Translations under genes and position numbers: made by a program
In this document: positions 2 to 20,000 of the stretch, one piece after another
Numbering within the stretch: position 1 is the stretch's first letter
How the letters are laid out: every line of letters starts with the position of its first letter
The notes under the pieces: generated by a model
The model's database searches: none
What the model was told of the DNA's origin: nothing
What the model saw: the letters and a program-made list of their open reading frames with translations, nothing else
Origin: Psammoneis japonica
Taxonomy: Eukaryota
DNA length: 20,000 nucleotides
Direction of reading: 5' to 3'
Assembly (NCBI GenBank): GCA_008632985.1
Contig: QPGO01000066.1
Coordinates: forward strand, 120,384 to 140,383

Positions 2-1213
2 TTCTGGGCGTTTGAAGTAAACTACTTCACAGCCCGACTCATTCTTGTGATACTTTCGGTTCTTCATCCACGTTGTGTCAGGCTTGTCAAGAATCCTGTC
101 CCATGTCAGATACGCAAGGGAATCACCAAGCTGTCTGAGCTCGTCGCTATCAAGTTCGATTGTGTATTTCTGCATCATCTTTGAAAGACGAGCAAAGTCT
201 CGGGCTTCGCTCAAGCCTGCTTGTCGAAAAGCTGATCTCATGGATTGCTCTCGATTCTTGCCGTTGTGACCATAGTGTCTGACGGTCTCTGCAGGGCCGG
301 GCAAGTAATTGTGCGACGTTGACAGGACCTCTACTCCATTATTGTACATGTTTGGGTAGAGAAAGGCGTTGACAGCGCCTTGTTCCCAAGAAAAGTTGGT
401 TGCACACCAGTTGATATTCCACCACCTAGAAAGCACTTGACGTCCTTCTTCTGAAGGGGCAAGGATAAAGTTGCTGGTAATTGCGGCTTCTCCGCAAAAG
501 GGGCGGTTCGAAAAGAACAGCATGAATGAATCTCTTTTGAGCTTGTTGCACTCTGGAGTAAGACAACCCTCATATAATTCTTTCGGCGATTCGATCTTGA
601 GCTCGCGGTATCCTTTGGAGGAGCAGCCGAGGCCTGTTCCATCTAGAAACGTTTGAATAGACACCTCTTGGCGAATCCAAGCAGAGTCGGAGTCCATCCA
701 CATGAGTGATCCTGAGCTTATCGAAAGAGCCTTTTCCATTGCAAGCAGTTTTCCCCATGCAGCGTGTCTTAAACCAAACAAGGGATGATAGCATTCGTTA
801 TCTGCCAGAACAAAGTGATAATACGTGTAACCGTTTTTCTCCGCGTATGCCATGTTGATCAAAGATGCCCACTCATAAAATGTTGCGTTCTCAGGAGTTA
901 AGCTCTCTAAACCGAAACGGGGGCGTCGATTGTCCGCTGAGACAAGAGTGAACAGATTGCGAGTCAAGCGATGTTCATGTTTCATTGAAAGGATCCAGGT
1001 CAGAAGCCCGCAGCCACAAATAAGGAGCACAAGCACCATACGAGCAACGGTATTCTTCTTGGCGCGGACAAAAAGGACAGATCTCTTGACACCGCCCATC
1101 ACTTTCGCCAGCTCTATCTGTCCAACCTCATGTGATGCGGCTTCTGAAATTATGTGCTTCCTTTCATGGAACTTTTCACCACCTGTCGCCTCGTACCGCC
1201 GCTTCAATCCCAT
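2..1213 (-). CDS. Glycosyltransferase, GT34 (GMA12/MNN10-like) family, type II membrane protein; 3' end outside the window
   Basis: Manual translation gives an open frame from ATG 1213 (alternative ATG 1099) to the window edge, about 404 codons with no stop. It has an N-terminal hydrophobic anchor (MVLVLLICGCGLLTWILSM), then YAEKNGY, AAWGKL, the DxD motif WMDSD and WEQGA, typical of GT34. Tyr and TpA content are normal. Missing from the ORF track because its stop lies outside the window. Confidence 0.8.
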   Translation of the reverse strand, partial: MGLKRRYEATGGEKFHERKHIISEAASHEVGQIELAKVMGGVKRSVLFVRAKKNTVARMVLVLLICGCGLLTWILSMKHEHRLTRNLFTLVSADNRRPRFGLESLTPENATFYEWASLINMAYAEKNGYTYYHFVLADNECYHPLFGLRHAAWGKLLAMEKALSISSGSLMWMDSDSAWIRQEVSIQTFLDGTGLGCSSKGYRELKIESPKELYEGCLTPECNKLKRDSFMLFFSNRPFCGEAAITSNFILAPSEEGRQVLSRWWNINWCATNFSWEQGAVNAFLYPNMYNNGVEVLSTSHNYLPGPAETVRHYGHNGKNREQSMRSAFRQAGLSEARDFARLSKMMQKYTIELDSDELRQLGDSLAYLTWDRILDKPDTTWMKNRKYHKNESGCEVVYFKRPE

Positions 1214-1512
1214 CGTGCGACGGCGTACAGTATGCCGATTGCAATGATAGGGCTACAGTAGAGGCCATAGCACATGGCGAAAGCCCTCTGCCAATTAGTA
1301 GAACGCCTCGTATGTAGAATTTCTACTGAGACCTACACGATCGCTTCTTTTTCGATCATCGCTTTGCTTGTGCACACGAAATCTCAACTGATGTTTGCAA
1401 TTTCGACAAGATTCCAGGTGCAAATCGATGCTTCTTTGCATTTTCTAAGGAGCTAACAACACTCAAAACGATCACAAAGAAGCAACAAAACAAAAATAGT
1501 TTACTTGACGAT

Positions 1513-1969: not shown

Positions 1970-2169
1970 GACGCGTTCCAGACGTGGGTGGGAATCCGTG
2001 TGACCTTGGGCCCGCAGAATTCCACATGCAAGCTCTGCAGCAAAATTGCAAGGCAATGGAAATGTCAATGATTGCCAACAGAAAATGAGGCAATTTTGCG
2101 AATGCACAAACCAGGCCATGATTGACGAACATCATTTTTTACTTGGCCAGTTGCGTTCTTCAGACATTG
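1970..2169 (+). mobile_element. Truncated copy (one end) of the GACGCGTTCCAG-terminus MITE family
   Basis: Colinear with 15428-15627 (GACGCGTTCCAGACG...TTCTTCAGACATTG). No partner terminus found. Confidence 0.8.
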
Positions 2170-2337
2170 TGGAAAACTGTCAATTGCAGTCTCCCAAGGA
2201 AATGGCACACAGGCAAACAACAACAGCTCTGTCAAAAATCTGTTCACTCATCATCTCTGCCCACTGGAGCTGAGTCTCTGCAAGCCAAGTCATTGTGACA
2301 AAGCAGAAGCATCATCAACTGCCTGCTGCTGCCTGCT

Positions 2338-2421
2338 GCAATCTCTTGCTGACTGGTGAACAGTGAAGAAGGAGGCCTTTTCCCTGCCACCATGAAGCCC
2401 AGCAACAAAAAGATGGCCCAT
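2338..2421 (+). repeat. Dispersed ~80-bp direct repeat, second copy at 3742-3816
   Basis: GCRATCTCTTGCTGAC..GTGAACAG..AAGAAGGAG...AAGCCCA...GGCCCAT in both copies. They differ by TG versus CA at homologous sites (CAGTGAAG/CAGCAAAG, CCATGAAG/CCACAAAG). Confidence 0.8.
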
Positions 2422-2546
2422 GTGTCGTGTGCTGCATTGCACCCCTGCTGAGAGACAGGTCTGATTGGTCAATTGTTGCTGAGTGAACCAACACATGCCA
2501 CTCAATTCTGCAGCATGAGGAGGCTGTGCGGCACAAAAGCACAACA

Positions 2547-2588
2547 CAGCAGCAGCAGCAGCAGCAACAACAACAACAACAACAACAG
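2547..2588 (+). repeat. (CAG)n(CAA)n trinucleotide microsatellite
   Basis: 14 consecutive CAG/CAA units read directly. Confidence 0.95.
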
Positions 2589-3231
2589 AGCAGCTGGCAG
2601 GTGCGCCTGCACTGTGCGTGCACTCTGTGCTGTGGCTCTCCTGCTGGCACTGGGGCTGGCACCATCATGTGCCATCATGTTTTGCACGGGCACATCAAAG
2701 GATCTCACAGCCAAAAGATGATGGAGCCACCAAAGTGAAGGGCCTCCCACATGCCCAAATGGATGGAAAAGTGGAGCTCATGCTTTGGGAGTTGTTCTTT
2801 CATGCCAAAATTCTTGACCCACCAGCAGGTTCCCACTCCCACAAAATTGGTTTCATCTTCTTCCTTGGTTGCTGGCAGTGTGTTGCAAAGATTCACAGCA
2901 GGTGCGGCAGTCACCGGGGAGGCCTTTTCCTCCTGGTCCTGTGCCATGATGTGGAGCCCGTGCCTCAGTGCCAGCAAATTTGACCAAACCCACCTTGTGA
3001 TGAATCAAGATGGCCACTCAGGCACAACCCACCATGCCACCAATGAGTGAGTGTGTGAGGGAGACTCATGAGCTACAAAGGCCATGCCAATGGCTGGCCC
3101 AACACAGGAGGTTGCCAAACTCAGCAACACAAAGAGCAGAGGTCGGCCTGGGCCAGCACGGACCATGCCCAGTGGGAAATCTGGAGGAATTTGTTGTTGC
3201 ACAAGCCCATGGCTCCAAAGCCAAGCCAATT

Positions 3232-3325
3232 GAATTCTGCCCATGAGCTCTGCAGCTCATGCTCTGGACAATGGGAGTGTTTGTCGTTGACACACAAACA
3301 AATGACTGAGTTTGTGGAGCATTTG
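3232..3325 (+). mobile_element. Internal fragment of the same MITE family
   Basis: GAATTCTGC..GAGCTCTGCAGCTC..CTCTGG...TGTTTGTC..GACACA.AAACAAA matches the reverse complement of about 5635-5729. Confidence 0.7.
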
Positions 3326-3407
3326 CACCGCTTGATGCTTGCAATTTTTGAAAATCCCCACCTGCCCCCTTCACAGTTCTCAAGACAATCGAGAATTGAT
3401 CTGAAGA

Positions 3408-3494
3408 AAAGGGGCATTGGGAGATTGCTGGTTGTTGTCGGCCATTTCTGCAGTGGCAGAGTTTGACGGCACCATCAAACAGCTCTGTCGCAAG
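3408..3494 (+). pseudogene. Calpain (CysPc) catalytic-Cys fragment
   Basis: Translates KGALGDCWLLSAISAVAEFDGTIKQLCRK, matching the calpain motif QGxLGDCWLLxAxxxLAE. Similarity is not evident on either side. Confidence 0.8.
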
Positions 3495-4170
3495 TCGCGA
3501 AAGCTAACGAAAATGTGTTTTTCTGACATGAGAGAAGAAATCGAACATGCACACGATTGTGCAACAGCGGCATTCAGCATGTCAGGTTGTTGTGGTTTAG
3601 GAGTGCCTTCCTGCATGTTGGCAAAAACAGCAAAAAGGTTTTCTTGCCATCCTCGAGGGTGCAAGGTGCCATGCGACAGCATGACATGCTTCCTGTGGCA
3701 CAGTTGCACCAGAATGTTCCCTGGCACCTTGCCATGCCGCTGCGATCTCTTGCTGACAAGTGAACAGCAAAGAAGGAGACCTTCCGCCACCACAAAGCCC
3801 AATGAAGGTGGCCCATCTGCTGGATTGCATTCCCAGACGATTTGATTGGTTGCTTGATGCTTCATGCGAAGTCAAAGGAACGACATGGATGACATGCATT
3901 CCAGGCCAAACGAGAAGAGTTGCGACTGCTCTCTTCATGTTGGGTGCGTGCAATTCCTTTGTTCAGGCACCCTCATCACTGGGTTTGCAGTCCACACAAC
4001 TTCTGCAAAACGGCTCCACAAGATCGTGATGCAGGCTTTGCACTTGAAAAAAGGTCATTCACACATTGTGGTGTGATTGCAAACAAAGCGGGACGGGTCA
4101 ACATGTCTCACGTTGTTCGCTCTCACGTGTCTTTCTTTGTCGCTGGATTGGTCGCCCTGTCCTCAGCTCA

Positions 4171-5386
4171 TCAGTCAGCAGAGAACAGCTCCACTTGAAC
4201 ATGTGCTCCCGACGACAAAGACCGCCAAAGATTTTTGCGGGGATCTTCTCCTTGCAGAGGAGACCAATGATCGTTGTGCCCTAAATCATCTGTGTCCGAA
4301 CCCAAGCGCGGGGAGTTGCGCGCAGATGCCACAGCTGGCATTCTTTGGTTTCGACCAGCAAACCAATTGGCCGCAGCCTTCACCGCAACCAGACAAGGAT
4401 CTGGGAGTGATGTGCGTTTGGCAATTCTGGCCTTGACGATCCTCATGCCCCATGTGGCAAGGGAAGTGGGATTCGCTTTATCCACAACAGTTGGGTTCAC
4501 GCGAGGAAGGTCAAATTCGGTGTGACGGTCCACCATTGTGTGGTTGATTCCATCAACTGCAGCAGCGACCAAAGGATCAGGAGTGTTGTTGGCCGACACT
4601 GATTCCATGATGCTGTCATTGAATGTCGATGTCGCGATGGCGCGAGCAAAAGTGGACAGCAGTGCCGTCACCATCACGACGTCTTGATGTGTGCATTCTG
4701 AGTCAGGTCCACGATGATTCTGAAACAATTCTTGGTGTGTGGCCTCCGCGTCTGCGCCACCACGAGAACAGATCACAACACTGCATGAGCAATCCTCGTC
4801 TGGGTCAATTTCATCCCAATTAAGAACGTCGGTCAGGGACATGATCGGAACAATCAGAAGAAAAGGGACATTGTCCATGGCTTCTTTCTGAAATTTGAGT
4901 CTTGGCATGTTGCATTTGTTGTGTTTTAGGCCAGACTGGGAGACACGCTCGATTCTTCCATTGCTCAGCCTGTGCTCCACTCCTTTCACAAGTTTGAGAT
5001 GAATCTCTGGACTCACATTTTTCAGTCCCAGTGCAGCTTTGGAGACAAACCCACACGATTTGGATCCTCCTTTTGCATCGGAGATCACATGTGCTTTTTG
5101 AAAAATTCTGTGGCCAAGCAGATCTGTTGCCACATCACCGGTGCTGTTTGATTTTCCAGAAGAATTCTCACTGCGCCCTGGGGCTTTGGAACTTGCAAGG
5201 TCCAAACGAAGCTTCTCCTCTGAAAACACGGGCTGACACATCTTCGGCACAGACCGGCGGCGGATGGGTCCCAGGGCATCCACCCTGCTGTTGCTGCTGC
5301 ACAAAGTGATCTGTGCTTTCTCGATGTTCCAGAAACTGTCGTAAAAGGAGAAATGGGCACCTTTCTGTCGCTGATCCTCCTCCACA
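4171..5386 (-). pseudogene. Hypermutated gene, possibly an HNH-like endonuclease-domain protein; 5' part interrupted by a MITE
   Basis: Longest ORF in the track (432 aa) with protein-like composition but only one Tyr. The KAHVI...GLKHNKCNMPRL...MDNVPFLLIVPI spacing resembles HNH_2 (AHxI..NxxxL..D). The track start at 5469 lies inside the MITE, so it is not the true start. Family call is tentative. Confidence 0.45.
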
Positions 5387-5775
5387 GACGCGCTCCAGGT
5401 CCAGGTGGGACCTCGTGCTGCTGAACTGTGACATCGACAGTTTTTTGAATCGCGTCGTATGTCGCGCACGTAGATTTCTACGTGATTTTGGCGAAATTTT
5501 GCATCATTTTACAGTGCAAATGTCAGGCGATCCATTCAGCAACTTTTAATGTTTTTTTCTTCTACGCCATTCTCGAGTGTCTTAAGAATGGCGCAGGGCA
5601 GGCGTGTTGTCCAAAACTTCGAGTGCGAACAGAAATGCATGCACTGCAAACTTGGCCGTTTGTTTTGTGTCGAAGACAAACATGTCCATCAACCAGAGTA
5701 CGAGCTGCAGAGCTCGCACGCAGAATTCCACGGGGCAAATGTCACAAAAAGTCCCACCTGGGACTGGAACCCGTC
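5387..5775. mobile_element. 389-bp MITE with imperfect TIRs and 4-bp TSD CACA
   Basis: Left GACGCGCTCCAGGTCCAGGTGGGA, right TCCCACCTGGGACTGGAACCCGTC. CACA at 5383-5386 and 5776-5779. Internal hairpin CACGTAGA-TT-TCTACGTG (5468-5485). Confidence 0.85.
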
Positions 5776-6118
5776 CACAGAGACAGCTGGTTTTGGTTGG
5801 TCAGGGGGGGGGGGGGGGAGGAGAGCAGCCATTTCTTTCGTTGGCCAAGTGACACTGGCTGTTGCGATGCATCGCGCATCCAGCATGCCCCTGAGGCTCC
5901 ATGTTGTCAGAGGACCTGCTGGCATCTGGCTGGGGCATCTGGTGCAGAAGCCACGTGAAGCCACGCGTGACAAGAAAACCAGCATCAAACATGATGACGT
6001 TGGAGGCAGCAGGTGGCCGATCGCCGCCACGAAACCACAAGGCAGCCACAGAAGGAACCACACATTGTCTGAGCAACTGCTGGATGGGACATGGTGGCAA
6101 CCACATCAAAGACATCTC

Positions 6119-6380
6119 GGCCTGCTCCAGCTCCAGGTGATCCGCTTTTCATCATGTGAGTGGCCGATTTTCTGCGCAGTTTGGCACATCAAACTCCTTC
6201 AATTTTGAGTGTTTCGAAAATCGAAAGGCAAGTGTGCACCCGAAAATACGCGCAAAGTGCACACTTGCCCTTCGATTTGGCAAAAAACGGATTTTGAGAA
6301 AGTTCAGTGTGCCAAATGCACAAATTGCCAAATGATGGGAATCGAGCCCGTGCGGGGATCACCTGGAGCTGGAACAGGCC
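6119..6380. mobile_element. 262-bp foldback MITE with related TIR and 4-bp TSD TCTC
   Basis: TIR GGCCTG(C/T)TCCAGCTCCAGGTGATCC (6119-6143 / 6356-6380). TCTC at 6115-6118 and 6381-6384. Inner 22-bp inverted repeat at 6218-6239 / 6257-6278 (21/22 match). Confidence 0.85.
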
Positions 6381-9300
6381 TCTCCTGCCTTTGCTTCTCA
6401 GATCCTTGGGGCAGAAAAAGGGGCAGAAAAAGGGGCGCAAAATGTGCCACCTGTGTGTTGCTCACTTCAATCATCACATTTGCATTGAAAGCCAAAAGGA
6501 GAGAACAACTTGCAGCTCCAGAGAGTGCCCACGTGCACATCACCATGGTTGAAAGTCACTTGGATGTCATTTTGCAATGCACATCATGTTGAGCGCTTGG
6601 CCAGCTTGTGCACCCTTGACATGACAATGCGCGGAAAAGCCAACAATGAGAGCAACGGAAAGTGGCCAAATCCAATCTGTTGCCAGTCAAGAAACATCCA
6701 ATGGGGAGCTCCAATGAAGCCACAATTTGATGACAATGGGGGAGCAGGCAAAAACTTGAGAGCTGCTTGAAATGTGTGCCCAGCTGGCTTGTTGTCTTTC
6801 CAGAAATCAGATGGCAACTTTGACGAAAACATTGGATTTGCAACAACCCACCACTTGAATTCTTTGCAGCAGCAGCTGCACTGGAGAAGAAACACCTGCC
6901 ACACAAAATGACAAGGACATGCTGGTGATGCCAGCAGAAAAGAGAAAGTGAGAGTGCGCAGCTGCAAAGTTGTTGCCCATGTGCACAAATTCTGCCAATG
7001 ATGTGAGGCAGACAAACTTCTTTAACACAACTGCACCATGCATTGTCAAGTGCATTTCATGTGTTTGTGCATGTGTTCAAATGTCATCACATTTCAATCG
7101 TGCGTGTCAATCGCGGGTTCACATGAAGGACAGATTGACCACACAGACTTGATTGGATGTCAAAAATTACAAACGCAATCACTTGACAATGTCGACATCT
7201 TGCACATCAACAGCAATTGCATTTGCTGGACAATCTGTTGTCATGATCACATTCTCTGAAAGACCTTTCATTTGCAGAAGCAGTGCAGAAGCTTTGGGCC
7301 ATTGAGAGCTCATCAAGAGAAACCCAAAATGATTGAGCAAAATCTGATCTCATGATTTTCACTTTTTGCAATTTGCTCTGCTTTCATTTGCATGTGTTCT
7401 GAAGCATGGTGCACAACAAATGTGGGGTGGGGTGGCACCAAAGATGGCTGCAGAGAAATGGCAGAGTTCCAAGTGGAGGAGGATTGTGAGTTGTGAGAGC
7501 AAAGGTGGCACACAAATCCTTGCTCCAAGAGCAGCACAAGTTGTCATTGCTGAGACAATGATCAGAGCAGGAGCCATGGAAAGCAAATGCAGAGCAAACT
7601 TGTTGGCTGGGTGCAGAAAAACTGCTCACAGAAATTTCAAAGCGGTGTCAGCATTGCTCATTTGCCAAAAACTTGTTGCACTCAAATTGTGCTTGCGATG
7701 CATGTTTGTGTGTGCAACCTCTGCTCTTTCAAAACTCTCGTCAAAGGGACAACATGGTTTAGAAGCCCTTGAGAATTCTTCAAAATTGCAATTCCAGAGA
7801 GCCCCGCATGAGAAATGGCTTTGTCAAACAAGTCACCTCAAAAAATGCAACCTCTGACTCCCATCAATCATGCAATGCTGACAATGAATGTGAGAGCCTT
7901 CCCAATCGTGTCCATGCCACACCAAATGACAAGGTGAGCAACTTGTGACAAATGCAAAAAGATGCAAGAGGCATCAGAGCAACAGAGACAATGGAGCTCT
8001 GAAACAATGTGGAAATTTGTGCAAGAACAGCACCAAACAAGTGGGGTCAGACTTCCACACATTGTGGACAAAACAGAGCACCAACTGACATGAGGACAAC
8101 AGATGCACACAACATGAGTGACAGATGCAATGCATTGAGGCTTCACAACAATGCTCCAAGCCATGTGTTGCACCATCATCTTGTGGTGTTGTTTCTTGTG
8201 TGCATTTTTGATTTTTTTCTTGTCTGACGGGATGCTGCATGCTGTGGCAAGACAATGCCAGAGCTGCAGGCTGATTTTTCCATTGCGGTGTGCACGACCT
8301 CTTGCTCAGGATGCCCCAGAGTCTCTCCATGTGCATCTGAGGCCAAGCAGGGGTGTGAAGGCAACTGCCTCTGCACTCGCCATGTCATGCTGGTGCGCCC
8401 TGCTTTCTGAGATGATGTCAACAAAAACAAGTGGTGAGTGACATTTTGTTGAGACAACCACGCCATGAACGACAGCATCATTCATGTGAACCATCAGCCA
8501 AAGTGAATGACAACACACAAAATGTGCTCACAACACACCCAACTGTGATTGTCACTGCATGTGTCTTGTTTGTTTTGGGCTTTTTGGTGCACCCACATCC
8601 CAAAACCAACACACAACATGAGCAGCTGCCGTGTCATTTGACAATCTCTTGTGACAGAGTGCACTCAAAATTTTCTCTTTTAGATGCATGTTCTCATTTC
8701 TTTGTTTTTTGTGAGAGAAAGAACATTGAATTGAAAACAGCTCATTTGCCGCCATCTCAACGTTGTTTGCTTTTGATCAGCAATCCAGAACAAACAACTT
8801 GAATTCAAGCGCGATGCAAATCTGCCTGAAATCCACAGAGAAAGATTCCTTTTTCTTCATGAAGTCAGGAGTTTGGCTGATTTTGTCGAGTGCGAAGGTG
8901 GTCACATTCACAATCTGTCACTCTGCTGTCTTTCCTTTTGCAGGCACTGTGCTGTGCAGCAGCATCAGCTCCGCTGGCACTCCCGGTTGGCATGAGCCCA
9001 CCCACTGGCATGACATGTGCGCTCCACATGATGCACACAGGGAAGCCCAGTTGATTTTTGCCACTCAGGCATGAATGAAACATTGAGGCATGTGCAGACA
9101 AAAATGGAATCTCGTTGACATTTTCCCACTGTTGCAGGCACATGCAGCCTCTCATGCAAAGCCTGTGCATGTAAAATGCCACGCTGTTTTACAGTGATCC
9201 CATTTTTTGGATTCCAACGAGTGTGATTTGCTCAACAAAATGCCATTCCATGCCAACAATGACAAAGACACATGGTTGAGAGGCTCACAGAAAAAGACTT

Positions 9301-11433
9301 TGCAACTCTGGCACTTGGTGCCATTGTCAACAACACTCTTGAGAACAAGGGATTTTCATGACTGAGTGCACTCATGAACTTGACAAACCAAATGTCTGCA
9401 ACGCCAAAACATTCAAGGACATGTTCCTGTCGTTGCTGTCATTGCAACAATGCACCATCATCATGCCACCAATTTCAGCGATGATGCAGGCAGCGTGCGC
9501 AACATTTCCAGGGACACATGGCATTTTGTTGTGTTTCCGGACAAACCTGACTGCACGAGACTTATTTTGCACAATTTAAATCTCTGCAAATCATTGGTCA
9601 CATTTGTTGCAGACAATTCACAACAAACACATGCGCCAAAAACCAGTGCTTTAAGATTCGATGCATGCTCAATGAATGTCCACATGCATTTCAGCAGCAA
9701 CATGACTTCGTTGTTTGGCAGCTCTCCTTTTGTCACAGAGACAAATGGCAACAGATGCAAAACGAGCTGTCCAAGACAAAACAAACAGTGACAAATGGAG
9801 ACAGAGACAAAACAAATGGCCTGAAACAGCGCAAAAACAAATTCAGAAAACAAGCGCCGTGATCGCGGAAATGCACACCGGCCATGTGCATGCGCGCCGG
9901 TGTGACTTGCGGGTGTCGTCGGGTGTGTCAATGTTGTTGCTCTTCTTGAATGTAAAAAACACATCAATCCACTGACACCATGCATGCGAGTTCAATGGGA
10001 TGCAGGATCTTTGCAAAATCTGGGCAAAAATTGTCCCTTCGTGCTTCGCTGTGCTAAAAACCCCGCGACAATCCTCCACAATGAGTGAAAATTCAACTTT
10101 TTGTCAAAAACTCTTGTCACGTGCTCATTCAGTGCTCCATCGATGCAAACAAATGAGAAAACTCCAAATGCACTCCACAAAAAGTGAAAATCAACAGCCC
10201 CGCTGCGGCCAAAAACTCTGCACGCTTTCAGTGCCAAGTTGCATGTGTCAGCAAATCAGCTGTCACCAATCGCTCAATCAGCTCCCAAAACAACTCAATC
10301 ATTGTCATCCAACATTTTTGCTGCACTCATTGTCACATGAGTTGTCGTCTCGGTGCACCAGAACCCCCCAGTCAGCTGTTGTTGTCGTGTGTGGCAATCG
10401 CCAATGTCGCGGCATCGTTGCCGTGATGTTTGTTTGTGTCAGAGTGAATTCAAATCGATCGCTGCTAATTTCGCAGCACACTCTACATGCGCAAATTTTG
10501 TGCAGATCAGTGTGGGAACTGGATTTTTGAAAAGTGCGTTGCCCCATTTGGGTTGAATGAGAAGCTGTTTCTTTTTTGCCATCATGAGCTTCCTCCCATC
10601 CAAGGACTTCTTGACTTCTCGAGGCACAACATCACCCCATCCAATGTGGCCGATGAAGTCAGAAGGCCCAAGGGGTCGCTGCAACACCTGTGTTCATCGT
10701 CGTCATGGCTGTGGCATCTTTTGCCCGGGGCGCTCCATGGTTCTCTGGTGGCAATCGGCACACCCCTGTGGCAGGGGAGAATGTGGTGATGTCATGGTCA
10801 CATGGCAGCTTGTGTCTTGTTCATTGCATTTTTGCACAAATGTTCTTACATTCATTTGTGCATTTGCACACAAATGCTGGTGGCAGCAGGAAAAATCCTG
10901 AACCACATTCTCCCCTGAAACTCTAACCACCAAAAACTGAGGGTGCGGAAGCGCACTTTTGGAAGTTCTTTTCTCCACAAAAAAAACACGCGTTTTGACA
11001 ACTCGACCATGATGATGCCTCGTGCTTCTTCCCCATTGCCTTCCCAGGATGCCGATCCTGCTGATGCCATTGCCAATGACGCTGATGCAACAGGCAATGT
11101 CATTGTTCCGGTTCTCGTGGGTGTGATGCATGCAAAATGAGATGCCACAAACTTGCACTGTTGTTTGCACGCTCCACCGCCTCCCACAGATGCTGTCACA
11201 AATTCCAAAGCCGCACCTGTGTTTTGGGCCCCTGGCATGCCCGACACTGTTGCTCCCGCCCTTGCTGCCGCAGGTGCTGTTGACATTGTTGTTGTCTTTT
11301 GCCAATGACGTCCACAATGAAATGCCAACAACTCACACTTCTTTCATGCTTGCCCCACCGCCTCCCACAGATGCTGTCACAAATTCCAAAGCTGCACCTG
11401 TGTTTTGGGCACCTGGCATGCCCGACACTGTCA

Positions 11434-12378
11434 CTTGGTCTGCGATCAAAAAAGGCAACTGGATGGGAGAATGCGGCTCGCAACCGGCTTGCTGTTTGTT
11501 GCCCGGCAAAATTCAGGGCAAAAGAAGTTCAAGAAATGACTGTTGTGTGCGACATCCATCCCACATTGCTGCAATTAGCGGGGTGCTCAGATGTGCACAA
11601 AACACTGCGCCCACGCATGAATGGAAGAAGTTTTCAGTGATTGCTGGTTCGTGAAAATGCTTGCTGGCCACAAGAACGTGCACACCTTGCTGGCAAGACT
11701 GGCAAACCTGAGGCTTGCAAGGCATCAGATGGCTGGTCCCACCGTTTCACCAAGTTGTGTTTGCTTCCAATCGACAAGAGAAGCACTTCTTTTGCACTGG
11801 GCAACTGGGCAGTCGTCAATGATGATGGCACCTGGGGACTCTTTGACCTGTCGAGTGACCCAAAACAGGAGAAAGACCTCAAAGACATTTTGCCTGCAAC
11901 CTTTTGCTGAATGCAGCAAGGCCATTTCTCAGAGCCAGAAAGCATCCGTGGGGAAGATCATGCGTGGTCAGACCCAGTTCAACTCATTGGCCTTCCCGGT
12001 GTTGAGCAACCGCACCCAGAGATGGAGCATGCATGCCGCTTCAAGGGCAAGAATGCCTTCACTTGGTCGAATTCATTTTTCGAGGAAGTTGGAGCCACCC
12101 AGGAAATGAAAGTCAGAGTCCTTGAGCCAGCAACGTGCGATGTTGAACTTCGCACTGAGATGGCACCGAGGGGAACAAAGATCCAGCTTTGAGGTGGTTG
12201 GGACATGCACACTGCCCTTTTGAATGCAGAAAAGAAGCACCACTGTGTTGGCCGCTTTGCATTCCCTGCAGGAGATCAATCCACATCAACAACAGTTGTC
12301 AACTCCGATGATCGGGAAGATCTGAGAAGAATGTTGGCGTGGAGTTTGTGTCTCACGAAAGTGCACTGGGTGACATAG
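11434..12378 (+). pseudogene. Sulfatase (arylsulfatase-type) C-terminal fragment
   Basis: One frame: LRSKKATGWENAARNR...DIHPTLLQLAG...MNGRSF...WGLFDLSSDPKQEKDL, matching sulfatase motifs KxxxWE, DIxPT, GRS and LFDLxxDPxE. In-frame TGA at 11638, 11908 and 12190. The catalytic N-terminal half is absent and the 3' limit is uncertain. Confidence 0.8.
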
Positions 12379-12489
12379 CGTGTCCTCTTCACAGCCTCAT
12401 TTTCATGGACATCTGTGCTCCTGCCACTGACTTGTGTGTTGTGGCTTTGAGGGCTGCAAAAATGCAATCGATTGACATCTCCAGTTTGG

Positions 12490-12815
12490 TGGAGAAGAAT
12501 CAGTCTGATTTTCTTCCCATTTTTGTTGTCGTCGACGAACTTCTTTTTGACACCATTTTTCCGCATCGGCCACACCCGACTCGTGCATTTCATTCATGAC
12601 TTCTGGTGATGACGACTGGAGGACGAGCTTCAGCAGAGTTGGGACACTGTTTGTTTTGCTGCATGGACTGATTTCATCATTTGTGTCCACGTCGCCTGAC
12701 GGATTCCTCAAACGAATCTTGCTGAGCGGAATCACAGACACATTCACGGTCCGCTTGACTTGCGAGCCATGCATTTGTTGCAGGACTTTCAAGTCGGGAC
12801 AACCAAATCGACAGT
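12490..12815 (-). pseudogene. Gene fragment, possibly the C-terminus of a patatin-like phospholipase
   Basis: RFGCPD...KRTVNVSVIP...DEISP...LLKLVLQSSSPEVMNEMHESGVADAEKW resembles the patatin/PNPLA tail (..YExGxxDAxxW). No GxSxG motif present; tentative. Confidence 0.4.
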
Positions 12816-13465
12816 GACGTGTTGCTGCTGTTGTGGTTGCGTGAGTTTCCTGGTCTGCCGTCATCCATTGGGCTCCTTCCAAAGCAAAAACAACAACAGC
12901 ATCAACAGCACCTGCAGCAGCAAGGGTGGGATTGACAGTGTTGGGCATGCCAGGGGGCCGAAACGCAGGTGCGGCGTTGGAATTCGTGACAGCATCTGTG
13001 GGAGGCGGTGGGGCGAGAATGAAAGAAGTGTGAGTTGTTGGCATTTCATTGTGGATGTCATTGGCAAAAGACAATGACAGCATCAACAGTGCCTGTGGCA
13101 GCAAGGGTGGGAGCAACAGTGTCGGGCATGCCAGGGGCCCAAAACGCAGGTGCGGCGTTGGAATTCGTGACAGCATCTGTGGGAGGTGGTGGAGCATGCA
13201 AACAACAGTGTGAGTTTGCAGCATCTCATTTTGCGTGCATCACACCCACGAGAACCGGAACAATGACATCACCTGTTGCATCAGTGTCATCAGCAATGGT
13301 GTCAGTGGGATCGGCATCCTGGGAAGGCAATGGGGAAGAACCACTGGGCAACATCATGGTCGAGTCGTCAAAACATGTGATGTTTTGGTGTGTGTGCTGT
13401 CTTCCAAAAAGTGCACTTCTGTGCGCACCCTCGGTTTTTGGTGGTTCACAGCTCCCCTGCCACAG

Positions 13466-14885
13466 GGACACACTGCATTTTGTCGCATTTGGCGACATTT
13501 TCTTAAATGAATTGATGATTTGTCGCGAAAAGACGCGAATTGCGACAAAGTGTCCGGGTTGGCGATAAACAGGACAGAAACATTGTTCAACCAAGTCACA
13601 AAATGATTGTTGTCATTTACAACCAACCTGCACTTTGGTGATGTCGTTTCAATGAGTGGGGCAATCAACAGAATTTGGCGATCGATGTCATCGACGAAAA
13701 TTCATCTGACAAAATTTGTCGCATCCGACAAATTTTGTCGGACGTCCGACAAAATTTGTCGGCATGTGACACGACACGACACGACACAACAAAGACACGA
13801 CAAGAAACGACACGACAAGACATGACATGACACGTCACGACACGTCACGACACGTCACGACACGACGACTCACGACTCATGAACGAAACACCCATGCCCC
13901 CCACACACGCCAACCGCTAACGTCTCCGTCAACACCATGTCTCTTTTGCACGATGATGCAAAGTGACGATCGTGCCGCTCTCGGCGGTCTCCAACATTTC
14001 ATCCACAATCTCGTGGAGACGGCACGTCCATGCGACTGGGCACTTCTGAATGTTGGGGAGCGTTGCATTGTCGGCATGTCGCAAATGTCCATCTGTCGGC
14101 ATTTGTCGGCTCTTGTCGGCGTTTTTCGTACATTGTCGGGGTTTGTCGGACATGACAAAATTTGTCGTGTGCAGTCTTCGCCGAAAGTCAAGGATGGATC
14201 TACGTGCTGCGGTCTCATTTAAAACAGCTCGCATTTCCCGCACTTCACCGTGCCATTTTGACCTGCCTCGGAACACCCCCAAACACCACTCATGCGTTTG
14301 TCAAACCCTCATGGGGGCTGTCAGATGGCTTTAAGAGCTGCACATTTGGTGCTTCAAATGCCACTTGTCGACCTGTGCCCTGTTGTCAGGTCAAAAAAAC
14401 TGCCATTTTTTGCTAAAATCAGGCTTCTCATGGGAGATCAGCGGCAACTTTCCGGGAAATGCCAACAAGTGGCATTTGACTGGCTGTGGACATGTCTCCA
14501 GTCGTTGCGGTAAAAGTCGCTCATGGTCACACCTGTTGTTTGAGCATTCTAGGGTGTCTGGCGAATGGACAAAGTTCGACCAATCGCTGAAATTTTTTTT
14601 TTTGCGAACGTGCGCGCATTTGCTGCGATGCATCCGGGTTGTTTTTACAAAAATTGCGAGCTCCCAAAAAACAGAACACAGCACACAGATCCATCCTCAA
14701 ATTCATCATGTGGCACTGCAGTTGACACAACGTTTGTGTTTGGGACATGCCATCGCCAATTGAATGATGACTTTGTCTTAATTTATCGCCAACGATTGAA
14801 ATTTGTCTCAAAGGGCATTTTTCACGACAAATCGTCCAATTCATGCATGGGAATGTTGCAATTGGCGACAAAATGCCGTGTGTCC
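13466..14885. mobile_element. 1420-bp non-autonomous TIR element, PIF/Harbinger-like (3-bp CAG TSD)
   Basis: About 130-bp imperfect TIRs starting GGACACAC(T/G)GCATTTTGTCGC. CAG at 13463-13465 and 14886-14888. Excision restores CTCCCCTGCCACAGGGGTG. Many TGTCG/CGACA motifs. Confidence 0.8.
13725..13880. repeat. Perfect 38-bp palindrome followed by a degenerate (CACGA)n array
   Basis: CCGACAAATTTTGTCGGAC|GTCCGACAAAATTTGTCGG (13725-13762), then GACACGACACGACACG... from about 13768 to 13880. Confidence 0.9.
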
Positions 14886-15427
14886 CAGGGGTGCAATCGG
14901 CGGATTGAAAGATTTCAGCCTTGGACCCAATTAAAAAAATCAACGGACAAGTGAACTGAAAAATGTGGCGGTGCATGCAGTGCACTGTGCGTGTCGGCAC
15001 GACTTGGTCAACGGGTGCGGTGGGCACACCCCTGTGGCAGGGGAGCTGTGTGTGTGTTCGTGGTTGCACGCGCACGGCTTTGCCGTGCGTTGAGTTTCAA
15101 TGTCAACATCCACATGAATGTGTGTGTTCCACAAGCAAAAATTCCCATTCCACAGCTCCCCCAAAACTCCAACCACCAAAAACCGAGGGTGCGGAAGCGC
15201 ACTTTTTGGAAGACTGCACACACACCAAAACATCACGCGTTTTGTCGACTCGACCATGACGACCTCCCGTTCTTCGTCCCCCACACCACCTGACGCATCC
15301 CCGCTGCCACATCTGATGTGGCAGTCCCTCCTGCATTGGCCGGCACCGTTGCACCCGCTGTCGTCACCCAAACACAGCCGATTTGCCATCCAGAGGATTT
15401 GGGCTTCTGTTCGCCGGATCCTGTGCC

Positions 15428-15823
15428 GACGCGTTCCAGACGCAGGTGGGAATCCGTGTGACATTGGGCCCGTAGACTTCTGCGTGCGAGCTCCGTAGTA
15501 AAATTGTGCAGCAATTAAAATGTCAATGATCGCCAACAGAAAATGAGGCAATTTTGCGAATGCACAAACTCGCACATGATTGAAGCACATCATTTTTTGC
15601 TTGGCCAGTTACATTCTTCAGACATTGAAGAATGCAACTGGCGCATCATTGTTTCTATAAATTTGTCATGTAAAACGTCAGGGGCTTCGCAAAACAGCGA
15701 GTCTGGACAATTTTTTTTAAACATCACATGCAGAAATCTACGTGCAAAACATACGACGGATGACAAAAATTGTTGTTGTCACACGTCAGTGCTACGAGCT
15801 CCCACCTGGGGCTGGAACGCATC
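15428..15823. mobile_element. 396-bp MITE (GACGCG terminus) with 4-bp TSD TGCC
   Basis: Left GACGCGTTCCAGACGCAGGTGGGA, right TCCCACCTGGGGCTGGAACGCATC. TGCC at 15424-15427 and 15824-15827. Opposite orientation to 5387-5775; retains several TA sites. Confidence 0.85.
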
Positions 15824-15953
15824 TGCCTGAAACACAAACACAGCGCTGGGATTGGTCTGCCCCTGTCATTGCATCCCCAGAGAAACTGGACTCTTGTTCG
15901 CATCATCGTGTTGTGGAAGGTTCTGATGAGCCGTCTCTCAAATGGTCTGGGGT

Positions 15954-16596
15954 GCAGCTCCGAAACCAGCCGCCACGGAAACGACACAAGATGAAGAGGA
16001 TGAAGAAGAAGAAGAAGAAGATCTTCATGCAGAAGAAGCAGTTGCGGATGATTGTTTGTATGAAGAAGAAGAGGAGGAGGAAGTGGAATTCAATCCCATG
16101 TCCATGTCCATCTGAGGCCGCACTTGCAGGAGTTTTTGCAAAGCATTCATGGCAAGCATGAATTCATTGTCTTTACGGCATCTCAACAAGTTTGTGCCGA
16201 TGAGTTGTTGAATTGAATTGATCCGGGTGAGTGGCAGTGCATGTTGCAGTTGTGTGTTTTTTGAGTTGAAGTGCGCTTCCCACCCACCCATCAGATGGCA
16301 AGTTTGTTCAACACCGCATGTTTCGTGAATCCTGTCTTGCCGTGGAAGGCAATTGCCTCAAGGACTTGAATGTCTTGGGCCGTGACTTGGACAAGACGGT
16401 CTTGGTGGACAACTCGCTGCACGCCTTTGGCTGTCAGGTGGACAATGGCATTCCCATTGAATCGTGGTTTGACGATCCCAACGACGTGGAATTGTCAAAG
16501 CTGGCGGAATTTTTAGAGAAGCTGCCTCACGACAATGTCAAGCCCACGGTGCGAGCCAAGTTTCAAACGTGGAAACTTGCACAAGAGGCACGTTAA
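15954..16596 (+). pseudogene. FCP1/SCP (NIF) CTD phosphatase fragment, CTDSPL2-like, with retained intron and deleted catalytic motif
   Basis: An acidic tract ending EEEVEFNP is joined out of frame at about 16098 to VHVHLRPHLQEFL..KHEFIVFTASQQVCADELLN*IDP. A GT-AG intron at 16227-16294 follows, then DGKFVQHRMFRESC..GNCLKDL..LGRDL..TVLVDNS..AFGCQVDNGIPIESWFDD. DLDETL is absent. Confidence 0.9.
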
Positions 16597-16696
16597 CGAA
16601 AGAAAAACATGGGGAAGAAAAGAAAACAATTGCAGCACTGTTGGCTGTGGACAATGGATCTGTCATGATTTGACTTGCAGTTTGTGCATGCAGTGT

Positions 16697-17140
16697 TCTC
16701 TGGCAGGCTTGTGGCACTGCGTGATGCTTGCAAGGGACTGCAAGGAGGCAAGTTTGTGTGTGTCACAATGTGTTCTTTTTTCTGCTAGGTCGCATGTTGC
16801 AGCAATCCACACACCCAAATTCAAGCAGTCGTTGTCATTTGTGGGCCCTGTCCAATCTCCGGCAGGCATTGTGTGTTGCACTGTGTGTTCTTTCCAGTCG
16901 ACTGCAAGATGGCACAATGTTGTGTGTCTCCATCATTGTGTGTTCTTTGGCCATTTTGCAGCAATCCGCACACACGAGTTCAAGTGTTCTGCTTCATTGT
17001 CGTTGTCATTTGCACCCAATCTCTGGCAGGCATGTTGCACTGTGTGTTGCTTCCAGTCCACTGTGAGGCAGCTGCAAGTTGTGTGTCCATCACATCATGT
17101 GCTCCACTGTTTTTCACTGTGTCGCAGCAATCCGCACACC
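16697..17140 (+). repeat. Degenerate tandem repeat, ~160-bp unit, ~2.7 copies
   Basis: GCAGCAATCCRCACAC at 16799, 16958 and 17124. TCTC(C/T)GGCAGGC...GCACTG(C/T)GTG recurs three times. Confidence 0.8.
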
Positions 17141-17637
17141 TGAACTCAGGTCTGTTTGAAGCACACGGCATGACATGTCACTCTGCCAAGCATGCGGAGC
17201 CTTTTGGAAGACATCAAGAGAGACCCGCAAGATGGATGCGGCGGCAGTGTCATCGGAAAAGGTGCCGTCAATTTGGCTGGAAACGGCAGCATCCATGCAA
17301 ACATCTTGTGCAGCAGCAGTGTGTTGGTTGCCCGAAATTTGAGGCATCCCGCTAGAAGGAAGCATGCCACACATGTCAGCAGAAACGGGAGAAGAAGGCG
17401 GTTCGGCGCATGTGTGGACGGAGGAGCAGCAAGGTGCAGGGGACGAAGAACGGGGGGTCGTCATGGTCAAGTTGTCAAAACGCGTGTTTTTTGTGCGGAG
17501 AAAAAGAGCTCCCAAAAGTGCGCTTCCGAACCCTCGGTTTTTGGTGGCCAGAGTTTCAGGGGAGAACATGGTTCAGGATTTTTCCTGCTGCCACTAGCAT
17601 TTGTGTACAAATGCATAAATAAATGACAGAACATTTA

Positions 17638-18346
17638 TCTCGCGCACGTGTGCGCGGTTATTAGACTGTGTAGGCGTGCGCACGTGTGTGAGGTGTAAGT
17701 AGAATAAACGTAGAATTACTGCTGAGTGAGTTGACATGCGGTGGATTTTCCGCCGGTACACAGTCTACGTGGTCTACATGAAAGATAAATTTATGTTGGT
17801 CTCTTATGGTTTTACATATCATTAACATTGCTCCGGTCTTGAAAAGATACATACCCAAATTCAAAAAAGTGAGGAACACCCCGAAACATATTTTAAAATC
17901 TGAATAAAAAAAATTTCTATTTAACGTCCCGAACAGAGTTGTCGCGAAGCGCTTCTCAAATTATCTTCAGATTGGATATAGCGAAAACTCCACTATTACC
18001 AAAACAGAGTCACTATGGGCAAAATAGATGTCCGTCCTTCGCGCGCAATAACAGCAGCCTCACGATAACGCACAACAACACCATGGCGAGCAACGCGAAC
18101 GCCGTTCACTTATCTACCAGCTTATTGGACAATATTTATGCAATGTATTTCTGGGTCTAGTTGGGATTCTTCTCATTGCTTGTTGCCGTGTCATGTTACA
18201 ACGTTTGACCCACCCCACGCCGTGTTTTTTGCTTTGTTGCCTCTGCTCGCGCGCCACCAACAGCTTTTCCTGCAGGGCATGGCTAGTTGGACGGTCACAT
18301 CGAACCCAAACGTGCGCAACCAACTAGCCCTACCCCGGCTAACTCA
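17638..18346 (+). mobile_element. ~709-bp non-coding insertion with normal TpA content; Helitron2/Helentron-like ends
   Basis: Splits the alpha-type end of Pack element 2; the flanks rejoin to match the reverse complement of 10761-10885. 5' hairpin CGCGCAC-GT-GTGCGCG (17641-17656). Asymmetric 8-bp inverted repeat GCGCACGT (17642-17649) / ACGTGCGC (18310-18317). 3' stem GGCTAGTTGG / CCAACTAGCC (18281-18329). No TIR. The insertion is well supported; the class is tentative. Confidence 0.6.
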
Positions 18347-18466
18347 CACAAAAATATGATGAATGAGACATGAGCTGCCACGCAACCATGACATCACCAC
18401 GTTCTCCCCTGCCACAGGGGTGCGGCGGGCGGCGGCGGGGGGGACTTGGGACACAACAATGCACTG

Positions 18467-18740
18467 TGTAGGATGGAGAGTTCAGGACTCTCTTGAGGTT
18501 GTGCAACACAACAGAGGATGATAAGAAGTGGGTTTGGGACAACAAGATGCGCCAAAGACACGAATTGTGAGAAGATCTCACGAGGGATTGGAGATGACAT
18601 TGTGACCCAACGGTCGTGTGTGTCACTCCGATTGCTGTCGCTAGAAGACTCAACGGACATTTCTTCCGGAAGAAGAGATCCATGACCGGAAGCGTCATCC
18701 GTGAATCAGATTCGGTTGTTGACTCGTGACTCTCCCTCTC
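18467..18740 (-). mobile_element. Polypurine tract and putative 3' LTR of the Copia element
   Basis: The minus strand reads GAGAGGGAG (18740-18732) shortly after the pol stop, then AGTCACG... to ...CATCCTACA (18467). The LTR end cannot be confirmed without the 5' LTR. Confidence 0.55.
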
Positions 18741-18767
18741 AACCGAAAAGAGAAGGAGAACTGTCAG

Positions 18768-20000
18768 TCACCAGCCCATGAGGGCTTTGCGACCAGCACG
18801 GAACAGATCAACAGTCAATCCTTTAGCAAACTGGTCAGCAAGCTGTGCAGCTGAGCTCACAGGCTCAATTTTGATCTCCAAAGCCTCAACTTTAGTGCGA
18901 AACCAATGGCAGGGAATGCCGATGTGCTTGGTTCGTGGGGACAATTTTGGCATGCGGGCGAATTGGAGGCAGGCAGCATTATCTTCGTACACAACGGATG
19001 CTGGGAGGTTAGTGGAGTCAATGGGAGAATCCTCAGTTCCGTCGTTGGTGTGTCGGAAAGCCTTCGAATGTGTCGAAATATCGGTCTGTCTGTCCGGCTG
19101 TCCGAAAACGAGCGCGTTGATTTCCTTCACGATCTCGCGAAGGGGGATGAGATCACGCATCGCTTGGGAGAGGGCGACATGCTCGGCTTCCATGGCAGAG
19201 AGTGCGACGAGGGTCTGTGGCTTGGACACCCAGACAATCGGACATCCTGCACAACAAATGACACATCCCGCACGTGACTCAACAGACGTGGGATCTTGTC
19301 CATCTTCAACACTGAAGAGTCCCGCGAAATCAGCATCAACATGGCAGTCGAGTCGTTGATCGGCGGTTGGAGTTAGGATAAGTCCTTTATCGGCTGCATC
19401 CTTCAGGTGACGAAGAATGCGCTTGACAGCCGCAGCGTGGGAGGCCTTGGGTGCGCAGGAGAACCGTGCGACTTGATGGGTCGCGCAAGCAATGTCTGGG
19501 CGGCTGTTGGATGCTAGATGCATCAGCATGCCGACCACGGAACGGTGGTCACAAGGCTCTTCGAACGGTGGCCCTTCGGCATCGCTGCCAGCAGGAGCAG
19601 GCAAGGCAGGAGTGGGTGCGCCATTGCACTCAGTCATCTGTGCGGTGCGGAGAACTTTCTCAATTAGGCCGGGTTGGGTCAGGAGGAATCGGCCGTCTTC
19701 GAGCTTTTGAATCTTGATGCCTGGAAAGTTACCGACTTCGCCTTCATCACGTAGATCAAAGACATGGCGTTGCTCATCGTCAGAAATGCCCAACTTGGCA
19801 ATCTCTGCTTCCAAGGCTTGGGCCGATGCGCCGGCGAACACGGCATCATCAACATGTGCCACACATGACATGCCCTTTTTGAAATAAAGACAAGGGTCAA
19901 TGGCGGATTGAATCCATCCTCTTTCGAGCAATCCGTCCCTCAGCTTTTCATAGAAGCACTTGGGAGACTGGCGTAGGCCGCACAGGCCTTTCAACAATTT
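18768..20000 (-). mobile_element. pol: Ty1/Copia pol, RT and RNase H region (CoDi-like), hypermutated and probably inactive
   Basis: Motifs GLRQSP, IDPCLY, HVDD (=YVDD), SRPDIA, VDADFAG, EAEHVALS, YEDN, RTKHI, QLADQFAKGL and terminal LMGW*. Continues beyond the window. Confidence 0.97.

Follow-up and report, generated by a model that had tools for sequence, protein, structure and literature searches.

How can a retrotransposon gene lose almost all of its conserved tyrosines and still keep an open reading frame? The question is raised by a 20,000-nucleotide stretch of contig QPGO01000066.1 (positions 120,384 to 140,383, forward strand; hereafter the window), whose far end encodes, on the minus strand, the reverse transcriptase (RT)/RNase H end of a Ty1/Copia pol gene. 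A first-pass annotation made from the sequence had proposed that the altered residues of this gene mark places where the dinucleotide TpA once stood. Comparison with related elements confirms that observation and supports its interpretation: in our assessment, the window is probably best explained by a transition hypermutation that is directed at TpA and acts, at the DNA level and on both strands, on silenced or foreign sequence.

Loss of conserved tyrosines from a Copia pol gene

The features of the gene, which we refer to as P0001 after its protein product, are as follows.

18768..20000, minus strand: 3' end of a Ty1/Copia pol gene (P0001), an open 410-codon frame cut by the window edge
19602..20000, minus strand: C-terminal part of the RT domain (residues 1-133), Pfam RVT_2 PF07727
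19845..19856, minus strand: mutated catalytic box HVDD (YVDD in relatives), with its His codon CAT at 19854-19856
18816..19361, minus strand: RNase H-fold domain (about residues 214-395), from an AlphaFold2 model and VIA-align
18768..18770, minus strand: TGA stop codon of pol

Several features assign P0001 to Ty1/Copia pol. Residues 1-133 match PF07727 over profile positions 115-243 of 244 (41.4 bits; cut-off 31.6), and the whole frame is collinear with 59 Copia polyproteins at 52-61% identity and 100% query cover; in tblastn comparisons the match reaches the last residue in 9 of 9 full-length proteins. Upstream of PF07727 the relatives carry PF13976, and many have a gag-pre-integrase domain; the matching part of the present gene would fall outside the window, past position 20000. 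The sole named close relative is a protein of the diatom Fragilaria crotonensis (60% identity), and a near-length search of a 5.8-billion-protein collection returned no relative above 61% identity. No further piece of the same element was found elsewhere in the window. An AlphaFold2 model of residues 196-410, built with 19 relatives (predicted local distance difference test score, pLDDT, 70.8), aligns in VIA-align with RNase H domains at Z scores of 8.6-10.4 over 108-129 residues, the matches being cellular RNase H1 and the RNase H domains of the HIV-1, MoMLV, XMRV, CaMV and foamy-virus RTs. A Foldseek search of the PDB with the same model gave no match at E ≤ 0.001 (best E 0.033, weak), and PDB sequence searches with P0001 and with profile A1 gave none. 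P0001 shares its Ty1/Copia pol with the diatom Copia elements (CoDi; Maumus et al. 2009, PMC2806351); compared with those elements the present copy is inactive.

We defined a conserved column as one with at least 80% agreement among the 59 closest relatives, which gave 198 columns. P0001 deviates at 31 of these, and 26 of the deviations need a single base change. TpA transitions (T>C where A follows, A>G where T precedes) account for 16 of the 26, divided on the sense strand into eight T>C and eight A>G changes; the others comprise one transition and nine transversions, with no frameshift and no stop. Counted by type, 16 of the 17 inferred transitions fall at TpA. All eight conserved Tyr columns have changed (six to His, two to Cys), 10 of 11 Tyr-majority columns now hold His or Cys, and the other changes at conserved columns include five Thr>Ala, one Leu>Pro and one Lys>Glu. 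The Tyr content of P0001, 0.73%, is the lowest of 241 proteins (median 3.13%). His occupies the eight conserved Tyr sites in none of the 59 relatives at five sites and in at most 2 of 59 at any site. This pattern of deviation is far beyond chance. Since the gene is otherwise barely decayed, the TpA process must be much faster than ordinary decay.

The catalytic box illustrates the outcome. An intact YXDD box is missing: P0001 reads HVDD where 58 of 59 relatives read YVDD, the inferred change being TAT>CAT in the ancestral context ATAT. We therefore class P0001 as a dead descendant rather than an active element.

The motifs quoted in the first-pass annotation are all present in the frame (HVDD, DHRS, LMHL, DIACA, LRHL, CHVDAD, EAEH, PCHW, FPG, SKPQ, ESRAGC, SAMEAE and FAKGL). 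The tyrosine that it took to be lost is found in 58 of 59 relatives at HVDD, in 59 at each of HRS, LRHL and EAEH, in 57 at PCHW and in 51 at CHVDAD; at LMHL, 49 relatives have Y and 10 have F. Its other replacements are likewise borne out, with L in all 59 relatives at the FPG site, K in all 59 at E241, and T in 49, 59 and 57 of 59 at A244, A269 and A392, respectively. Four readings stood in part. The motif DIACA is present, but the Y of its proposed precursor DIAYA is ambiguous (Y in 39 of 59, F in 16); C246 is there, but its Y ancestry is weaker (46 of 59); and SKPQ is present, but CTA>CCA is one of two possible histories (L in 30 of 59 relatives, M in 28). Three Tyr do survive (TAT codon 17, TAT codon 39 and TAC codon 338), but only codon 338 is an ancestral tyrosine, the relatives having mostly Phe at codons 17 and 39 (47 and 59 of 59). 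The proposed direction of change fits the relatives themselves, which carry almost none of these changes (at the six Tyr columns of the invariant type, none of the 59 has His), and the proposed site is correct for all 16 changes, each of which is a single transition at a former TpA position with both orientations represented.

For a DNA-level control, we tabulated the same substitutions in metagenome loci (16 initially, two dropped for stops, 14 used). TpA transitions make up 3 of 250 single-base deviations in the 14 loci against 16 of 26 in P0001 (Fisher p 1.3e-16), which is the bias that the first-pass annotation had predicted. All three control cases belong to one locus, L018. At the protein level, Tyr>His/Cys accounts for 8 of 31 deviations in P0001 compared with 3 of 510 in the 59 relatives (p 7e-9), and the same 510 deviations include one Thr>Ala and no Leu>Pro or Lys>Glu. 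Across 240 relatives, the number of His or Cys residues at the 11 Tyr-majority sites is zero in 173, one in 48, two in 16, three in 2 and five in a single protein.

Two further elements deserve mention in their own right. In L018 (3001-4173), 3 of 22 single-base deviations are TpA-type, the ratio of observed to expected (o/e) TpA is 0.46 and that of CG 0.30; it is possibly a mildly affected element in a metagenome. P0108 is a full-length Copia polyprotein of 1603 amino acids with an open frame, encoded on a 36-kb contig of another public assembly, and belongs to a different Copia family (41% identical to P0001). Of its 28 deviations, 6 are Tyr>Cys/His, whereas 30 comparators together have 3 among 900; its Tyr content is 0.87%. 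The same process seems to have acted on P0108, another element elsewhere.

TpA depletion, stop codons and flanking bases across the window

The whole window has a TpA o/e of 0.15, with CpA at 1.62 and TpG at 1.60, and the depletion is arranged in blocks. The features outside pol are listed here.

2000..17594, no strand: continuous, almost TpA-free block, CpA/TpG-enriched and with lowered CpG, from dinucleotide o/e
4171..5508, minus strand: P0125, a 445-codon open reading frame (ORF) of an uncharacterised family, in the TpA-free block
2..1252, minus strand: ORF P0122 (417 codons), with ordinary TpA content (o/e 0.50, 42 TA); internal control
18356..18767, minus strand: TA-poor DNA downstream of pol, probable start of the 3' long terminal repeat (LTR), as suggested by repeats
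17637..18348, no strand: TpA-normal block of ~700 nt, missing from the paralog at 10761-11034
17433..17636, minus strand: continuation of the repeat at 18349-18427 on the other side of the ~700-nt block, with paralogs at 10838-11034 and 15156-15287

Between 2000 and 17000 the TpA o/e is 0.07 (67 TA), with CA at 1.69, TG at 1.72 and CG at 0.59, and it falls to 0.03 at 17001-17594. It then rises to 0.84 at 17595-18355 (50 TA; CG o/e 1.21), returns to 0.13 at 18356-18767 (3 TA), and is 0.25 in the Copia ORF (16 TA; CG o/e 0.88). The depletion is thus confined to blocks, with an o/e of 0.07 against 0.50 in the ORF at 2-1252 and 0.84 in the insertion.

A second coding marker lies inside the depleted block. 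P0125 has 85 homologous clusters in a 1.84-billion-protein library (best 52% identity, E 7e-114) and conserved motifs AHL...CHKAYG, SGLKHxKYNK and LPDPxLxxVKAA; no Pfam family was found in it or in 11 relatives. We counted its deviations where its four closest relatives agree. The 38 deviations include five Tyr>Cys, one Tyr>His, three Met>Val, one Thr>Ala and one Leu>Pro, whereas each of the four relatives has zero or one Tyr>His/Cys, and P0125 retains 2 Tyr compared with 9 and 15 in two full-length relatives. Changes of the CpG type are also present (two Ala>Val, Arg>His, two Glu>Lys, Pro>Leu and Ser>Leu). Two processes therefore act on P0125, one converting TpA to CpA or TpG and the other converting CpG to TpG or CpA. 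In the Copia ORF only the TpA process is visible (CG o/e 0.88, one non-TpA transition).

CpG loss is probably distinct from the TpA process. Decay through CpG methylation and deamination likewise feeds CpA and TpG; its pattern appears at 2000-17000 (CG o/e 0.59) and in P0125, but it cannot remove TpA and is nearly absent from the Copia ORF. At 2001-3500 and 6501-8500 the CpG o/e falls to 0.19-0.25 just where the TpA o/e is lowest (0.01-0.04), and CA and TG rise to as much as 1.9. Either the same domains may be both methylated and hypermutated, or one enzyme may attack both dinucleotides.

The substitutions also account for the open frames. Conversion of TA to CA or TG yields no TAA or TAG, turns TAA and TAG into CAA, CAG and TGG, and can make an in-frame TGA only where another stop, TAA, already stood. 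The argument of the first-pass annotation that the frame stays open for this reason is logically sound and fits the stop census: over six frames, the window contains 863 TGA, 126 TAA and 92 TAG, and the segment 2000-13500 contains 527, 32 and 16. The 20 kb hold 65 ORFs of at least 100 codons on the two strands; these, like the open Copia and P0125 frames, exist because TAA and TAG have been erased and no stops created.

The TpA sites that remain show a preference in their flanking bases. Of 87 TA surviving in the depleted parts, 67% are in TAA/TTA and 21% in ATA/TAT, compared with 42% and 48% of 14,015 TA in 80 related loci (p 3e-6 and 1e-7) and with 44% and 54% in the normal parts of the window. 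Within the Copia ORF, TAA/TTA contexts are found at 4 of 19 inferred hit sites and at 10 of 16 survivors. The mutator prefers ATA/TAT and spares TAA/TTA, which explains why the Tyr codons (TAY) were changed so completely.

At the left end of the window, P0122 is probably a host gene. Its two homologues are 52% and 44% identical to it, and a language model gives a lead to glycosyltransferase family 34; it gave no Pfam match, and no identical or close protein was found in the 5.8-billion-protein collection. The TpA-free block begins within about 750 nt of it.

At the right end, 18349-18427 has a repeat copy at 10756-10834, and five TA in 17433-17636 face CA or TG in the copy at 10838-11034. Judged from this repeat structure, 17433-17636 together with 18349-18427 probably forms the 3' LTR of the Copia element, whose 5' LTR would lie beyond the window. 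The segment 17637-18348 that separates the two parts either arrived later as an insertion or represents an untargeted element; it may be a young insertion that post-dates or escaped hypermutation. It gave no tRNA or Rfam match, nor did the window as a whole. A target-site duplication around 17637-18348 was considered and dropped, as 6-7 bases are too short to judge. Among the 23 other long ORFs of the window, none has a Pfam family above threshold, and P0247 has no usable protein-atlas match.

We also noted an inverted repeat, 10925-11433 against 12933-13446 (458-515 nt, 88-89% identical), which holds 181-nt direct repeats (11166-11431 and 12886-13195). No TpA is left in its arms, and the differences between them are of the CpG type (20) or are CA/TG doubles (9).

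Proposed mechanism and competing explanations

The sites of the changes, their direction, strand symmetry and block structure, and the flank preference are the observations from which we propose a mechanism. A mutational process would turn the TpA of integrated DNA into CpA or TpG, equally on both strands. The protein-relevant TpA would be those in Tyr codons (TAY) and at T|A codon junctions, so that conserved positions would change from Tyr to His or Cys, from Thr to Ala, from Lys to Glu, from Leu to Pro and from Val to Ala, with YVDD>HVDD among the results; the Copia copy would thus have been disabled by TpA hypermutation and not by ordinary decay. The same process would have removed TpA from about 15 kb of neighbouring DNA, sparing the adjacent ORF and the ~700-nt insertion. 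The agent may be a host enzyme, acting as a defence or as a by-product of silencing, and the most likely chemistry would be deamination of the adenine 3' of T to hypoxanthine on either DNA strand.

An alternative chemistry would place the lesion on the other base: the thymine of TpA could be enzymatically modified in silenced DNA, to a base resembling 5-hydroxymethyl- or 5-formyl-uracil, and mispair with G, giving T>C on either strand. In some algae TpA is a favoured site for the modification of thymine, and thymine that has been oxidised mispairs with G. Given that TpA is palindromic, every count presented here is as compatible with attack on T as with attack on A, and the depletion of CpG in the same blocks (CG o/e 0.19-0.6) suggests that this DNA is base-modified. 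The sole published analysis of such a process proposes adenine deamination with an ADAT2-like candidate (Mettrop et al. 2026, bioRxiv 10.64898/2026.01.13.699255). We consider modification of thymine unlikely.

A sequencing or assembly artefact, in which a modified base at TpA is misread and TA is still present in the cell, is very improbable. The sole run that contains the sequence, X1 (DNA; 47% of sampled words), may be the source sample of the assembly, and no RNA sequencing run with window sequence is listed. Contigs of X1 match 2598-5413, 6321-7255 and 7341-10024 with 0 differences at a word depth of 31-35, covering 2,816, 935 and 2,684 bases of TpA-free sequence, and sequencing recovered TpA normally in the adjacent blocks. 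The Tyr>Cys/His pattern recurs in P0108, whose assembly is a different public one, and the preprint reports that the changes were seen to arise de novo in Illumina data.

The X1 contigs bear on repetition as well. Many related contigs align to the Copia part, to its flank and to 17637-18348, and the substitutions among copies overall comprise 228 A>G, 232 T>C, 260 C>T and 257 G>A, with 27-39 per transversion. Stretches of single-copy depth (2669-5336 and 8005-9338) are as TpA-depleted as repeats, and the seemingly abundant insertion is not depleted. A dependence on repetition is therefore not evident, although summed X1 word depth is not a copy number and this argument is accordingly weak. As a separate observation, summed word depth reaches 61,646 at 5337-6003 and 79,685 at 15342-16008, against about 31-35 in unique stretches; these segments look like an extremely abundant short repeat family, with related copies at 1970-2174, 5704-5782 and 15421-15632.

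Editing of RNA is likewise very improbable. Under this explanation, ADAR-like A-to-I hyper-editing of the retrotransposon RNA would have been fixed by reverse transcription before insertion; the element does replicate via RNA, and A-to-I editing prefers an A that follows U (quoted in 10.64898/2026.01.13.699255). Such editing should leave A>G on the sense strand only, yet the ORF shows eight A>G and eight T>C, and about 15 kb of flank outside the element, including an unrelated ORF, is equally depleted. Both the balance between T>C and A>G changes and the spread to flanking DNA and to P0125 therefore point to integrated double-stranded DNA as the substrate.

Ordinary lineage-specific divergence or selection, whether through a family that uses His or Cys at these positions or through genome-wide TpA avoidance, is scarcely credible: the relatives are only 52-61% identical and their own coding DNA is TpA-poor (median o/e 0.56), but catalytic and invariant positions are hit (the YVDD Tyr is kept in 58 of 59 relatives), none of the eight sites has His in more than 2 of 59 relatives, and TpA content is normal in the insertion and in the ORF nearby.

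Several points weigh against TpA-directed hypermutation of the DNA, or limit how it may be read. Ancestral states were inferred from relatives 52-61% identical, not from sister copies, and 10 single-base and 5 multi-base deviations of P0001 are not TpA-type. TpA is self-complementary, so the attacked base (A 3' of T or T 5' of A) cannot be read from the counts. As X1 may be the window's own source sample, with a library type that is unrecorded, its agreement is weak as independent support. Within the window, differences between paralogs are more often of the CpG type (CG/TG 45, CA/CG 38) than of the TA type (CA/TA 9, TA/TG 9). For a further 45 double differences of the CA/TG kind the ancestor may have been either TA or CG, and we dropped the intra-window paralogs as a test of direction because of this ambiguity. 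These doubles and the CpG-type differences mean that, outside the Copia piece, the surplus of CA and TG has more than one source. Finally, the raw TpA count of P0001 is not extreme: it has 16 TA and an o/e of 0.25, and the GC-rich loci L001, L022 and L023 have 24-28 TA. Its o/e is the lowest of 81 sequences (minimum 0.33 and median 0.56 in the 80 related loci), and the proof lies in where TpA were lost in P0001, not in how many.

Relation to known mutational systems and significance

The process is not new to science, being known from one 2026 preprint. According to the main text of that preprint, mutation-accumulation lines of Bigelowiella natans gained 302 new mutations, of which 231 lay in an integrated giant virus and a virophage; of these, 230 were A>G or T>C transitions, each at a TpA, and the rate was about 6e-7 per site per generation (Mettrop et al. 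2026, bioRxiv 10.64898/2026.01.13.699255). The same text describes 324 TpA-depleted coding sequences enriched for reverse transcriptase and DDE domains and names an ADAT2-like protein as the candidate deaminase. As far as that account goes, the two systems are alike in that TpA changes only to TpG and CpA, on both strands; blocks of foreign DNA are affected and the rest is normal, TpA loss is accompanied by CpA and TpG gain, and reverse transcriptase genes are among the depleted. They differ in target: in B. natans the giant virus and virophage are hit, with a mild Rho TpA of 0.45 in the giant-virus region, whereas in the window a Copia retrotransposon and a 15-kb block at an o/e of 0.07 are hit. 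Mutation was measured de novo in B. natans, whereas in the window it is known from its footprint in the sequence.

The words 'Copia', 'retrotransposon', 'diatom', 'stop codon' and 'trinucleotide' do not occur in the main text of the preprint, and that text likewise contains neither a polarity test based on protein residues nor the effect on stop codons or the preference for flanking bases. Across the titles and abstract beginnings of the literature searched, we found no report of TpA>CpA/TpG hypermutation beyond the B. natans preprint, and papers on fungal repeat-induced point mutation (RIP) dominate. RIP in ascomycetes (for example PMC2621366) is also a DNA-level, dinucleotide-specific transition process that inactivates transposons and leaves a dinucleotide footprint. 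Its direction is the opposite: RIP turns CpA into TpA and leaves a TpA excess, AT-rich DNA and many new stops, whereas in the window TpA is destroyed (o/e 0.07-0.25), GC rises, TAA and TAG are rare and frames stay open. Unlike RIP, dependence on repetition is not evident here.

The window is therefore a new example of a process described once before. Its target class is certainly new, and its lineage may be. We tentatively suggest, short of even confidence, that a TpA-directed system exists in a second algal lineage with diatom-like Copia; that its targets are LTR retrotransposons and entire silenced domains, and not repeats merely because they are repeated; that it prefers ATA/TAT and spares TAA/TTA; that it only removes stops and so leaves 'ghost' ORFs (410 and 445 codons here, 1603 codons in the other assembly); and that it may be a widespread, overlooked counterpart of RIP in marine algae.

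If the host is not B. natans, a mutational defence described in one preprint would extend to another organism and to retrotransposons, with a footprint, at a TpA o/e of 0.07 over 15 kb, far deeper than that given in the main text of the preprint. The replacement of conserved Tyr by His or Cys offers a simple, assembly-only proof of direction that can be applied to any genome for mapping, and the sparing of TAA/TTA gives a property of the putative enzyme that can be put to the test. For annotation, the process gives long open frames on both strands and dead transposon genes that appear intact; if it acts as we suggest, gene finders will call such 'ghost' ORFs.

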